From: Escherichia coli
GTDB lineage: Bacteria > Pseudomonadota > Gammaproteobacteria > Enterobacterales > Enterobacteriaceae
Direction: 5' to 3' (one strand)
Assembly: GCF_046105845.1 (NCBI RefSeq)
Contig: NZ_CP151004.1
Length of the DNA stretch: 64,000 bases
Positions within the stretch are counted from its first letter, which is position 1, and every line of letters begins with the position of its first letter. This document shows positions 32,399 to 39,944 of this stretch, piece after piece. Under the pieces are notes generated by a model. The model searched no databases. It saw nothing but the letters and a program-made list of their open reading frames with translations, and was not told the DNA's origin. The translations under genes and the position numbers were made by a program.

Positions 32399-32767
32399 TT
32401 TATTTATATTGCGAATATAAATATTATCTGAAAATCACACCACCTCTCTTTCCTTAATAACGATTTTACTTTAAACATTTTTATAGAAACATAATATAAA
32501 TTCCCGCAGATAAATATCAATCCCATCTCCATACCCTAACCAATTGCACTTGTGAACTTATTTTTACTTAATTTTGAATTAAGTAAATTTAATTTGTTCA
32601 AAAGCTTCTAAAGTGCACAATAGGCGACCTAATGAACAATGGTTGTAAATTTGGGTAACAAATATCATTGCTCATTAATATCTAACATTTGTTTCTCCTA
32701 TTTGTGTCATGAATAGTCATTCTTCAAACATGTAGTCTGACTAATGGAATTTTATTCAAGGATTTTT
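32399..32767 (+). promoter_or_regulatory. AT-rich leader / promoter region of the yad fimbrial operon (candidate H-NS silenced region)
   Basis: 369 bp with very high A+T content and A/T tracts, in sharp contrast to flanking coding DNA; no ORF. Confidence 0.6.
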
Positions 32768-33352
32768 ATGTCTAAAAAATTAGGTTTTGCCCTGTCTGGT
32801 CTTATGCTGGCAATGGTTGCAGGTACTGCTTCTGCTGATATGGACGGTGGTCAGTTAAATATCAGTGGCCTGGTTGTTGATAACACCTGTGAAACCCGCG
32901 TTGACGGCGGTAACAAAGATGGCCTGATCCTGCTGCAAACCGCAACCGTTGGTGAAATCGATGCAGGCGTACTCGAAACTACCGTTGGTGCCAAGGCTAA
33001 ACCTTTCAGCATCACCGTTGATTGCAGCAAAGCAAACCCTGCACCGGGCAGCTCTGCCAAAATGACCTTCGGTTCCGTGTTCTTTGGTAACAGCAAAGGT
33101 ACGCTGAACAACGATATGTCTATCAATAACCCATCTGACGGTGTGAATATTGCTCTGCACAACATTGACGGTTCCACTGTTAAGCAGGTAAAAATTAATA
33201 ATCCTGGCGATGTTTACACTAAAGCACTGGACGCGACCACTAAATCTGTAACCTATGATTTTAAAGCATCCTATGTTCGTGCTGTAAATGACCAGACGGC
33301 AACTGCTGGTTATGTAAAAACCAATACCGCATATACCGTTACTTATCAGTAA
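32768..33352 (+). CDS. yadN: Major fimbrial subunit (pilin)
   Basis: ORF 32744-33352; start taken at [23 protein letters not shown] (signal peptide, 194 aa); pilin-type C-terminus ...YTVTYQ. Confidence 0.9.
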
Positions 33353-33457
33353 TATTTCACCGAATTAATTGATTTAGTGAATATATAGGGAATAACATTG
33401 CCTGTAATTATGACAATGATTATTCCCTGTTCTAAATAATTCGATCAGGGATGGTTT

Positions 33458-34198
33458 ATGTTTTTTAATACAAAACATACTGTAGCATTATGCTTTGCAA
33501 CCTGTTTAGCTTTTAGCTCTTCAGCTATTGCAGATATCGTCATTTCAGGTACACGCGTTATTTACACAAGCGATCAAAAAAGTGTCAATGTACGTCTGGA
33601 AAATAAAGGCAATAACCCATTGCTGGTCCAGAGTTGGTTAGATACCGGAGATGATAACGCCGAACCTGGCAGTATCAATGTCCCATTTACGGCGACTCCC
33701 CCTGTTTCACGTATTGACGGCAAACGCGGTCAAACAATCAAGCTGATGTATACCGGCAGTTCTGCTTTACCCAAAGATCGGGAAAGTGTGTTTTGGTTCA
33801 ATGTCCTCGAAGTTCCACCAAAACCCGACGCGGAAAAAATGGCTAACCAAAGCATGTTGCAACTGGCCTTCCGTACTCGCATCAAACTGTTTTATCGTCC
33901 GGAAGGACTCACCGGAATACCGTCCGATGCTCCGGCTGCACTGAAGTGGTCGTGGACAACATCCGGCGGCAAAGTGGCGCTTCGTGTCGTTAATCCTACC
34001 CCCTTCTACGTCTCTTTCAGCAGTGGTGACGTTGTCGCCAGCGGAAAGCGTTATCCGTTAGACGTCAAAATGATCGCGCCACGCAGTGAAGATGCCATCA
34101 CAGTTAATGGGATCAGTAGCAAAGTGAGTTCTGCACAAGTTCACTTCTTTGCCATTAATGATTTTGGCGGCGCAATTGAAGGCAATGCCACTCTGTAA
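33458..34198 (+). CDS. ecpD: Periplasmic fimbrial chaperone (PapD-like)
   Basis: 246-aa ORF MFFNTKHTVALCFATCLAFSSSAIADIVISGTRVIYTSDQKSVNVRLENKGNNPLLVQSW...; also named yadV. Confidence 0.93.
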   Translation: MFFNTKHTVALCFATCLAFSSSAIADIVISGTRVIYTSDQKSVNVRLENKGNNPLLVQSWLDTGDDNAEPGSINVPFTATPPVSRIDGKRGQTIKLMYTGSSALPKDRESVFWFNVLEVPPKPDAEKMANQSMLQLAFRTRIKLFYRPEGLTGIPSDAPAALKWSWTTSGGKVALRVVNPTPFYVSFSSGDVVASGKRYPLDVKMIAPRSEDAITVNGISSKVSSAQVHFFAINDFGGAIEGNATL

Positions 34199-34232
34199 AG
34201 TCTTCAGGATCACACGCAGCAGGAAGCAAAAC

Positions 34233-37430: not shown

Positions 37431-38036
37431 ATGAAATTTAAACCTTCACGTTTTGGATTATCGACTGCAACTATTCTGGCGGCATCAGTGCTCACTTTTT
37501 CGTCATTTGCTGCGACTGATAGCGTTAAATTAAATGTAAAAACCACGGTAGAAATGGGAACCTGTACAGCCAGTCTGGTTGATGATAATGATCAAACCAT
37601 TTCTGTCGTTGCTTTTGGCGATGTTTATATTTCTGAAATCAATGCAAAAACAAAAATCAAAACCTTTAAATTACAGTTTAAAGACTGCGCGGGGATACCT
37701 GGCAAAAAAGCTAAGATTAAACTGACAAAACGTGCCACCTGTGAAGGAGCAAGTAACGACGGTCCCGGTTTTGCTAATGGCTCCACGGCTAGCGATAAAG
37801 CAAGTGCTGTTGCGGTTGAAGTGTGGAATACGAGCACTCCAGCAGTTGGTAGTGCCACACAATTCAGTTGCGTTACCCCAGCCGATCAGGAAGTGTCTAT
37901 TGCCACAGCCACGGGGAATACAGTTGTAGATTATCCGATGAGTGCGCGCCTGGTCGTGGATAAGAGTAAAACCGTAAGCGATGTTACAGCGGGCACATTT
38001 TCAGCACCAGCAACTTTCTCTGTGACATACAACTAA
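37431..38036 (+). CDS. yadL: Fimbrial minor subunit
   Basis: ORF 37422-38036; start placed at third ATG (MKFKPSRFGLSTATILAASVLTFSSFA, 201 aa) 8 nt after AAGGA; ATG at 37422 or 37428 also possible. Confidence 0.85.
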   Translation: MKFKPSRFGLSTATILAASVLTFSSFAATDSVKLNVKTTVEMGTCTASLVDDNDQTISVVAFGDVYISEINAKTKIKTFKLQFKDCAGIPGKKAKIKLTKRATCEGASNDGPGFANGSTASDKASAVAVEVWNTSTPAVGSATQFSCVTPADQEVSIATATGNTVVDYPMSARLVVDKSKTVSDVTAGTFSAPATFSVTYN

Positions 38037-38062
38037 CGGCACGTCGAATTCAGGAACTGATT

Positions 38063-38659
38063 ATGCTTTCCTCTAAACGTAAAATTAAGAAAAAAACAGG
38101 TCTGTTCCTGGCATTCATATTCACTACTTCCTTTTCGGCCTTCGCCGGGCAGGATATTAATTTAACTGCGAATGTAAAAAACAGCACTTGCCAGAGCGGT
38201 ATCAGTAATCAGGGAAATATAGATCTGGGTGTGGTTGGCGTGGGCTATTTTGCTGGTAATATTCCTCCCGAGAGTTATCAGACTGGTGGTAAAGAGTTCA
38301 CCATATCGGTGAAAGACTGTGCATTTCAGGGAACAGGAAATGTCTTAAATCAACTACACATAGACTTTAGGGCACAAAGTGGTGCAATGGCTAATGGTTC
38401 CCGACAAATATTTGCCAATGAAATTTCGTCAGGGGCGAGTAATGTAGGAGTGGTTATATTTTCTATCCAGGATTCGGCGAATATATTCAATGTTCTTAAT
38501 GCTTCAGGCGGTTCTCGCTCCGTTTATCCAGTAATGTCGGATGACATGAATGGTTCGTCCTGGAAATTTAGCACCCGAATGCAAAAAATTGATCCTGCAT
38601 TGAGTGTTACATCTGGTCAACTTATGAGCCATGTGTTAGTTGATATTTACTACGAATAA
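38063..38659 (+). CDS. yadK: Fimbrial minor subunit
   Basis: 198-aa ORF MLSSKRKIKKKTGLFLAFIFTTSFSAFAGQDINLTANVKNSTCQSG... Confidence 0.88.
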   Translation: MLSSKRKIKKKTGLFLAFIFTTSFSAFAGQDINLTANVKNSTCQSGISNQGNIDLGVVGVGYFAGNIPPESYQTGGKEFTISVKDCAFQGTGNVLNQLHIDFRAQSGAMANGSRQIFANEISSGASNVGVVIFSIQDSANIFNVLNASGGSRSVYPVMSDDMNGSSWKFSTRMQKIDPALSVTSGQLMSHVLVDIYYE

Positions 38660-38708
38660 CGAACAAAAATAACACCAACTCTAACAAAAACTCAATACTG
38701 GAGTAAAA

Positions 38709-39944
38709 ATGAAGACACTCTTCAGATACTTTCTTTTTTTAGCACTGTATTCTTGTTGTTATACAGTTAGTGCATATACAAGTTTTATTGTGGGAAATAA
38801 TGCAGGAGTTGATAATTATAAAGGACCTTCCACTGCTGCACGGGTAACCTTTAATTACACATCAACAGCAAGCAACCTGGTTTTTTATAAACCCACGCAA
38901 CTCGGCCCGACAGGGGTAAAAATGTACTGGTCATACCTGGACACGGGTCCGAGTGGTATTCTTTACTGTAATACATCTGGCAGAGCAAATCCTGGGCCAA
39001 TAACCATTGAAAATGCCATGGTTTATTCAGGTAAAGATTATGGTGGACATAAACTCTTTAAGACATCTGTTCCTGGTCTGTATTACACCATGTTAATATC
39101 AAGGGTCTGGTCTGCATACAATACAACAACTGATATTCAATCACCAGGAATCTATATCGGAGACACTTCAACCCAACAATTTCACTTCTCCATAACAGAC
39201 AACGATCTACAAACCAAGGGTTGCAACAAAGCAAACAGCTACGATAAGTTTTGGGCTATTGGTGGTGTTGTACACGACATAACTGTTGAATTTTATACAG
39301 ATGCTAGTTTCGATCCTACACTTAATCAGCAAGTCCAGTTATCCAGTTCATCCGATTACCTTTATGCGTTTAAGGCCTACAGTCCAGGTACCAGAGTCGT
39401 AGATCATAGCCATCACCTTTATGTCAATTTCACACTGAATAATGTCAAATTAACCTTACCAACATGTTTTACCTCCATACTTACCGGATCATCAGTCAAT
39501 GGTTCAACGGTTAGAATGGGAGAGTATAGTTCCGGGACAATTAAAAATGGAGCGTCACCTGTTCCCTTTGATATCTCGCTTCAGAATTGTATTCGTGTGC
39601 GTAATATTGAAACAAAACTCGTCACTGGAAAAGTAGGTACTGAAAACACACAACTGCTTGGCAATACGCTTACCGGAAGTACTGCTGCTAAAGGCGTTGG
39701 CGTACTCATTGAAGGATTAGCAACCAGTAAAAATCCGCTAATGACATTAAAACCTAACGATGCAACCTCTATTTATAAAGATTATGAAACCGAAGATGAC
39801 ACATCCGATGGAGTATACCCTAATCAAGGTAGCGGCACATCACAGCCTCTTCACTTCCAGGCAACGTTAAAACAAGACGGAAATATCGCTATCGAATCCG
39901 GTGAATTCAAAGCCACCAGTACCTTCCAGGTAACCTATCCTTGA
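38709..39944 (+). CDS. yadC: Fimbrial tip adhesin-like protein
   Basis: 411-aa [40 protein letters not shown]...; two-domain size typical of chaperone-usher adhesins; terminal pilin-like ...FQVTYP. Confidence 0.88.

Follow-up and report, generated by a model that had tools for sequence, protein, structure and literature searches.

The yad operon of Escherichia coli encodes a fimbria of the chaperone-usher type and has been described in several strains. In K-12 MG1655 (b0141-b0135) it lies between folK and panB, and it is cited as cryptic and H-NS-repressed in PMC3559732, PMC5797941 and PMC13245861. The Yad subtypes of CFT073 and EC958 (Ellison et al. 2026, PMC13245861) belong to the same system, for which H-NS repression, induction by serum and a role in virulence were shown in that work. 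The literature already covers the operon, its cryptic and H-NS-repressed state and how variable YadC is, and the system is a known one. The locus described here is the copy found in a 64,000-nucleotide E. coli segment (the window, which runs in reverse orientation relative to K-12 coordinates ~140-200 kb). It can be identified with high confidence as the orthologue of K-12 yadN-yadV-htrE-yadMLKC at the usual folK-panB site, present as a mosaic copy and very likely silenced by H-NS through an AT-rich leader.

The regulation of yad has been studied in both laboratory and pathogenic strains. In an hns mutant of CFT073, expression of a lux fusion to the yadN promoter rose more than 100-fold, and hns mutants of both CFT073 and EC958 showed derepression of all seven yad genes (PMC13245861); according to the same paper, published chromatin immunoprecipitation sequencing (ChIP-seq) data record H-NS binding of the CFT073 yad region. 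In extraintestinal pathogenic E. coli (ExPEC), yad is induced by serum and infected tissue, and Yad contributes to colonization (PMC13245861). The K-12 yadN/folK spacer has been catalogued as an H-NS-bound ‘promoter island’ (PMC3661553), overproduction of SlyA raised yadN expression 2.4-fold in K-12 (PMC5797941), and effects of ArcA, temperature and oxygen on K-12 yad have been reported. Yad has been described as not phase-variable. The YadC proteins of K-12 and uropathogenic E. coli (UPEC) are reported to bind xylose-containing glycans and annexin A2; the literature on H-NS, SlyA, ArcA, serum and ligands is cited jointly from PMC13245861, PMC5797941, PMC3661553 and PMC6921372.

More distant relatives occupy the same slot. 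Salmonella enterica subsp. salamae carries a Sta-type operon in the same surroundings (hrpB / thpR sfsA dksA gluQ pcnB folK / operon / panB panC panD), with nine genes between folK and panB rather than seven and an usher 63% identical to that of the window. StaA, StaD and StaE were the best NCBIfam neighbors of YadN, YadM and YadL, respectively. The ‘yad’ operon of O157:H7 Sakai (ECs_0139-0145) has the same slot, seven genes and the same annotated gene names, but compared with the window its usher is 60-61% identical, its pilins 40-46% and its YadC 27%, which makes it as distant as the Salmonella Sta operon.

In the window, the operon is flanked by gluQ, pcnB and folK on the left and by panB, panC and rpnC on the right, and is bounded by the end of folK at 32398 and the start of panB at 40057. 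The original prediction, that seven full-length, co-oriented genes with short spacers form a yad operon, was borne out in content, gene identity and order: seven co-oriented open reading frames with no internal stops were found on the plus strand at the coordinates in Table 1, with Pfam and NCBIfam support, and inspection of the window sequence for frameshifts or premature stops revealed none in any of the seven. The intergenic spacers from yadN to yadC measure 105, 34, 16, 11, 26 and 49 base pairs (bp), and the guanine + cytosine (GC) content of the operon is 0.438, compared with 0.515 for the window. The lengths of the seven proteins equal those of K-12 to within one residue, start-codon choice aside. 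For htrE, the start is a GTG with AGGAAG 6 nucleotides upstream, and an alternative ATG lies at 34185; the Prokaryotic Genome Annotation Pipeline (PGAP) uses the equivalent of that ATG in strain SCU-102, giving 882 amino acids (aa). K-12 shares with the window the locus, the seven genes, their order and orientation and the leader type. Orthology with Yad was assigned because the folK-panB position and the gene order N-V-htrE-M-L-K-C are the same, and because NCBIfam cut-offs were passed.

The domain content of the proteins is that of a complete chaperone-usher system. Both immunoglobulin-like chaperone domains are present in YadV (Pfam PapD_N, E = 1.7e-44; PapD_C, E = 2.5e-16), and the N-terminal, pore and C-terminal domains of an usher in HtrE (PapC_N; Usher, 513 bits; PapC_C). 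The Fimbrial domain (PF00419) was found in five Yad proteins, with YadK slightly below the gathering score (23.8 vs 25.6 bits). Signal peptides, cysteine pairs in the mature proteins and a C-terminal ..TY. motif are common to the Yad proteins of the window and K-12. NCBIfam models were matched well above their cut-offs by YadV (NF007398, 442 bits vs 285), HtrE (NF007337, 1653 vs 830), YadL (NF011797, a variant model, 368 vs 206), YadK (NF011794, 286 vs 132) and YadC (NF007268, 826 vs 382); for YadL and YadC, the models matched are variant-specific ones. No NCBIfam model scored above its cut-off for YadN or YadM, for which the best matches, Salmonella StaA and StaD, respectively, were both below cut-off. 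In the 411-residue YadC, the Fimbrial domain is confined to residues 263-410 and a putative N-terminal lectin domain spans approximately residues 23-255, a layout as expected for an adhesin; YadC is therefore predicted to be a two-domain adhesin comprising an N-terminal lectin part and a pilin domain. A sequence search for relatives of YadC with a solved structure gave none.

Table 1. Coordinates of the yad operon features in the window, and usher types found at the folK-panB slot
Feature	Position	Strand	Remarks
yadN, major pilin	32768..33352	+	194 aa; Pfam Fimbrial domain
yadV (ecpD), periplasmic PapD-type chaperone	33458..34198	+	class II allele; 246 aa; PapD_N + PapD_C
htrE, outer-membrane usher	34233..36833	+	class II allele; 866 aa; PapC_N, Usher, PapC_C
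yadM, minor pilin	36850..37416	+	188 aa; Fimbrial domain
yadL, minor pilin	37428..38036	+	202 aa; NF011797 YadL variant model
yadK, minor pilin	38063..38659	+	198 aa; NF011794
yadC, predicted two-domain tip adhesin	38709..39944	+	K-12-like allele; 411 aa; NF007268
AT-rich leader/promoter region of yadN	32399..32767	+	type A; presumed H-NS nucleation region; 369 bp, GC 0.274
Variable folK-proximal leader patch	32426..32509	+	20 mismatches in 84 bp vs K-12
K-12-like block: proximal leader, Shine-Dalgarno, first 15 yadN codons	32510..32811	+	1 mismatch (at 32757) in 302 bp, 99.7%
Imperfect 19-nt palindrome in leader	32555..32595		core CTTAA-N7-TTAAG, invariant between otherwise unalignable leader types A and B
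Stem-loop in AT-rich yadN-yadV spacer	33385..33430	+	spacer GC 0.295
Usher class I			K-12, KEN05A, KEN03A; 97-98% to each other; 86% to window usher
Usher class II			window; 86% identical to class I
Usher, CFT073 type			86% to window, 87% to K-12
Usher, six-gene type			Logan assembly ERR9384698_52; 74-75%
Usher, O157:H7 Sakai type	operon at NC_002695.2 154328-161292		60%; as far from the other classes as the Salmonella Sta usher (63%)

Outside the operon, ordinary E. coli genomes match the window at 97.5-98.6% identity; over the complete operon, identity to K-12 and BL21 is 81%. Sliding identity and mismatch maps against K-12 resolved the operon into segments of different ancestry. Downstream of the K-12-like block, mismatch density climbs after 32812 and is high from 32965, which places a left recombination junction inside yadN at ~32812-32965. 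The core that follows, at ~32,900-38,400, differs from K-12 with 66-85% nucleotide identity and saturated synonymous sites. The right junction lies inside yadK at ~38405-38416, as mismatches are dense to 38404 and sparse thereafter, and the 3' end of yadK (from 38416) and all of yadC are ~89-94% identical to K-12. The window operon is a recombinant in which a divergent core, here termed class II (the remainder of yadN to the 5' two-thirds of yadK), lies between K-12-like ends. Homologous recombination is indicated because both junctions fall within homologous coding sequence, that of yadN and yadK.

This structure is reflected in the proteins, for which amino acid identity to K-12 is 94.8% for YadN, 82.9% for YadV, 86% for HtrE, 69.8% for YadM, 76.7% for YadL, 83% for YadK and 91% for YadC; yadM is the most divergent gene of the operon, and YadL is next. 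Within YadC, the lectin part is 89% and the pilin part 95% identical to K-12. The expectation that YadC would be among the most variable of the fimbrial proteins held across strains (26-91% amino acid identity among those compared, where the minor pilins and YadC were the most variable proteins; 45-100% nucleotide identity in PMC13245861), but not in the window, where, of the seven proteins, only YadN is closer to K-12 than YadC.

The near-identity of the proximal leader to that of K-12 is explained by a recent shared recombination tract. Special purifying selection on this segment was rejected as the cause: patches of 100% identity also occur in pcnB (31200-31500), and other type A leaders differ by 6-8%. 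Elevated divergence was also seen beside the operon, where panB-panC (40057-41714) shares 93-96% identity with most genomes, and a part of gluQ (29700-30400) 89-95% with K-12, in a window that is elsewhere ~98% identical. Recombination tracts or hitch-hiking near a polymorphic fimbrial locus would fit this pattern.

The age of the core was estimated from synonymous divergence. By the Nei-Gojobori method, the proportion of synonymous differences (pS) between the window and K-12 is 0.69-0.76, i.e., saturated, for yadV, htrE, yadM and yadL, with ratios of non-synonymous to synonymous divergence (dN/dS) of 0.03-0.15; individual pS values are 0.69 for yadV, 0.72 for htrE (dN/dS 0.03) and 0.76 for yadL, which is fully saturated. 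The synonymous divergence (dS) of yadN is 0.61, and that of the flanking genes 0.08-0.33. At fourfold-degenerate sites the core differs from K-12 by 0.60-0.68, compared with 0.47-0.52 for flanking housekeeping genes between the window and Salmonella enterica subsp. salamae. Fourfold-site divergence between htrE and the Sta usher is 0.64, on par with that between the class II core and K-12; saturated synonymous distances cannot rank these splits, and by amino acid distance classes I and II lie close together (dN 0.08), with either far more distant from Sta (dN 0.29). Saturated synonymous sites combined with a dN/dS of 0.03-0.15 argue that the class II core is an old, deeply diverged allele lineage maintained by purifying selection, and neither fast-evolving nor decaying.

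Homologous allelic exchange inside the yad locus has clearly happened. A donor species was sought in a search of 5.8 billion proteins with the usher, which put the cluster of this allele (508 member sequences) under the E. coli label only. A scan of genome contigs with the class II usher, which relies on exact matches of 8-residue peptide words and is therefore insensitive, gave the species representative of E. coli as its sole match, at 86%.

At megablast sensitivity, the folK-panB slot is filled in 4,748 of the 5,426 complete E. coli genomes; the class II yadM-yadL segment was found in 92 of the 5,426 (~1.7%). The class II allele is present in dozens of RefSeq genomes, and class II loci in RefSeq (for example, SCU-102, PCN033, O166:H15 strains, a sequence type 70 (ST70) O7:H15 strain and 382634_2f) are 98.7-99.1% identical in nucleotide sequence to the window over the whole 7.5 kb; the strains matched across the entire operon at 98.6% or better include SCU-102, PCN033 and the O166:H15 and O7:H15 isolates. 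The YadN, YadV and YadC of SCU-102 are identical to those of the window. At least five usher classes, with identities of 60-87%, occur at this slot within E. coli (Table 1). The modules also combine in other ways. In 382634_2f, a class II core at 99-100% identity follows an unrelated leader, type B, and EC21Z-137 likewise has a class II core behind a type B leader, together with a YadC whose lectin domain is of another kind (61-74% nucleotide identity) and whose pilin domain is 98% identical. Since these two strains pair the class II core with other modules, leader, core and YadC lectin domain reassort.

Close relatives of the window as a whole were scarce. No complete E. coli genome was at least 99% identical over its left 24 kb (1-24000), for which the best match was strain M114 from a mountain pygmy possum (98.6%), and only three records reached at least 99% over its right 22 kb (42000-64000). 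The lineage of the source strain seems poorly represented among complete genomes.

The intact state of all seven yad genes is not universal. EC21Z-137 has a frameshift in yadL, the yadC of 382634_2f is annotated as a partial pseudogene, and in APEC_AN-25 an ISKpn26 (IS5-like) transposase gene replaces most of the operon, of which 141 bp of leader and a 3' fragment of yadC remain. Such lesions, two of them in class II loci, and the cryptic state of Yad in K-12 under laboratory conditions would fit a locus that is intact by sequence but dead, i.e., never expressed and decaying. The low dN/dS over a saturated synonymous distance points instead to long-term purifying selection on all seven genes, and in ExPEC yad is induced by serum and infected tissue and has a role in colonization (PMC13245861); a dead locus is therefore unlikely.

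It is very improbable that the operon is a recently acquired genomic island that owes its AT-richness to a foreign donor. The low GC content of operon and leader relative to the window, the divergence of the core within a window otherwise ~98% identical and the rarity of the yadM-yadL segment would all be expected of an island. However, the slot is filled in most E. coli genomes and by a Sta-type operon in Salmonella, and Yad has been classed as core-associated and ancestral (PMC3559732). The operon directly adjoins folK and panB, no integrase, transfer RNA gene or insertion sequence element is annotated beside it in the near-identical SCU-102 locus, and a scan around the leader junction (though not the yadC-panB junction) found no long direct repeats. 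The junctions inside yadN and yadK, in homologous sequence, are a signature of homologous recombination, and the usher searches returned class II under E. coli labels only, with the insensitivity of one scan noted above.

Immune and receptor-driven selection commonly acts on fimbrial subunits and adhesins. A scenario in which surface-exposed fimbrial proteins diversified rapidly under positive selection, which would account for the divergence of the core without ancient allele classes and for the greater variability of minor pilins and YadC between strains, is scarcely credible, as dN/dS is 0.03-0.16 in every gene and the divergence is chiefly synonymous, saturated and extends to the chaperone and usher, which are not surface antigens.

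An old allele lineage brought together with K-12-like ends by homologous exchange therefore remains the preferred explanation of the coding sequence, and the leader bears on its regulation. The leader had been predicted to be strikingly AT-rich relative to its neighbors, and windowed GC analysis agreed: its GC content (0.274) is far below that of the window, folK (0.50) and pcnB (0.56). It is the lowest-GC 369-bp stretch in the 64 kb, and just 0.06% of 369-bp windows are equally AT-rich, all of which overlap the leader. It is of the same type as the K-12 leader, with the same length and 94% identity overall. This type, A, is the common form, alignable at full length with 92-99.5% identity in 2,945 of the 5,426 genomes. 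Type A and type B leaders and those of CFT073, Salmonella, Sakai and the six-gene class are mutually unalignable, yet all are 280-419 bp long with a GC content of 0.26-0.32; that of CFT073 (363 bp, GC 0.256) cannot be aligned with the window leader, and that of the Salmonella Sta operon is also long and AT-rich (419 bp, GC 0.289). As unrelated leaders share both length range and AT-richness, these are a conserved property of the locus, which argues for a function in H-NS nucleation and in regulating access to the promoter and against a relic of foreign origin.

Because the window leader is of the K-12 type, results on H-NS obtained in K-12 should transfer to it, and it is very likely that the window leader is silenced by H-NS, by analogy with the studied strains. 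The original prediction had taken the AT-rich leader as the mark of an H-NS-silenced, horizontally acquired locus; the literature and the K-12-type leader support the silencing, and the acquired island is unsupported.

An imperfect palindrome in the leader (Table 1) may be a candidate regulator-binding site. A phase-variable switch, either an inversion of the fimS type or a pap-type Dam/Lrp switch, was rejected: no recombinase gene lies near the operon, the inverted repeats in the leader are only weak and AT-rich, and the leader contains no GATC sites, compared with 4.2 per kb across the window. Short leader open reading frames (21-42 aa, on both strands) were dismissed as lacking support and as expected in AT-rich sequence. 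Five sigma-70-like sites were found in 32200-33600, all on the minus strand and not above the number in shuffled sequences (5.4 ± 2.5). A scan of 31800-42200 with Rfam models gave one sub-threshold chance match, to a small nucleolar RNA model inside panC, and a consensus search found no terminator after yadC. A promoter-like site at 39994-40021 probably serves panB.

A second feature with a possible regulatory role is the stem-loop between yadN and yadV. The 131-nucleotide region that holds it has a predicted folding energy of -27.7 kcal/mol (z = -2.3), and the 10-bp stem (AGGGAATAA/TTATTCCCT) is retained in four of the five alleles compared; a search for a T-run terminator at this position gave none. 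The pap and fim chaperone-usher operons offer a precedent for setting the ratio of major pilin to assembly proteins after the pilin gene. By analogy, the yad stem-loop may stabilize or attenuate the messenger RNA such that more major pilin is made than assembly proteins.

The mechanism proposed for the window operon combines its observed gene content, intactness, domains, synteny and orthology, AT-richness and mosaic ancestry with silencing by H-NS, inducing cues and ligand specificity that would carry over from published work on K-12, CFT073 and EC958. Transcription would begin somewhere within the 369-bp leader and be silenced by H-NS polymerizing on AT-rich DNA, until environmental or host cues relieve the silencing, as suggested by the published effects of SlyA and ArcA and by serum induction. 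The stem-loop after yadN would then tune the amount of major pilin relative to the assembly proteins. After export through the Sec pathway, the pilins would bind to the YadV chaperone and be polymerized via the HtrE usher, to give a fiber with a YadN shaft, the minor subunits YadM, YadL and YadK and a two-domain YadC adhesin at its tip.

Several observations weigh against this scheme. A sigma-70 consensus scan found no sites on the plus strand of the leader, such that the promoter was not located. No match to the ArcA box (GTTAATTAAATGTTA, 15 bp, up to three mismatches) was found in the leader, and the count across the window did not exceed chance. The stem-loop shows almost no covariation among the five alleles. 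Finally, the scheme assumes that a K-12-like YadC and YadN can work with the chaperone, usher and minor pilins of class II, which are 14-30% different from the studied proteins.

Separately from the operon, a 65-aa open reading frame was observed at 41796-41993 on the minus strand, directly downstream of rpnC (42062-42994, minus strand). It is 58% identical to the C-terminal ~75 residues of RpnC, and the Rpn family model matches it weakly at its C-terminal end, below the cut-off. K-12 lacks this segment (3-12% identity at 41600-42000), and the open reading frame is annotated as ‘hypothetical protein’ in SCU-102, 382634_2f and EC21Z-137 and as ‘transposase, partial’ in CFT073. Small C-terminal Rpn proteins have been described as intragenic antitoxins of Rpn nucleases, and the free-standing reading frame could be a relic or a separate inhibitor.

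What the window adds to the known system is incremental: the great age of the class II core, shown by saturated synonymous divergence, the exact positions of the junctions, the way in which three modules reassort and the maintenance of AT-richness across unrelated leaders. The existence of several deep allele classes in one slot means that surveys based on identity thresholds can misjudge the yad locus. A published survey counted an usher as Yad if it shared at least 80% identity with HtrE of EC958 across 80% or more of its length, and on that basis reported Yad to be absent from phylogroup E and present in 5% of phylogroup D (PMC13245861). The 86% identity of the window usher was measured against the class I ushers of K-12, KEN05A and KEN03A, which form the comparison set here in place of EC958. 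As the Sakai slot holds a seven-gene operon with a 60% identical usher, threshold-based ‘absence’ would often mean ‘different class’.

The minor pilins of class II differ from those of K-12 by 17-30%, and antibody, receptor-binding and inhibitor results obtained with the proteins of K-12, CFT073 and EC958 may not carry over to class II fibers. The resemblance of unrelated leaders in length and extreme AT content is a natural argument for AT-richness as a selected regulatory property. More tentatively, the folK-panB slot might represent a long-lived balanced polymorphism of at least five lineages, with synonymous divergence as great as that separating E. coli from Salmonella, in which leader, core and YadC-lectin modules reassort at conserved junctions; the fiber encoded in the window would then be functionally or antigenically distinct, and be kept by frequency-dependent selection through host immunity, phage or niche.

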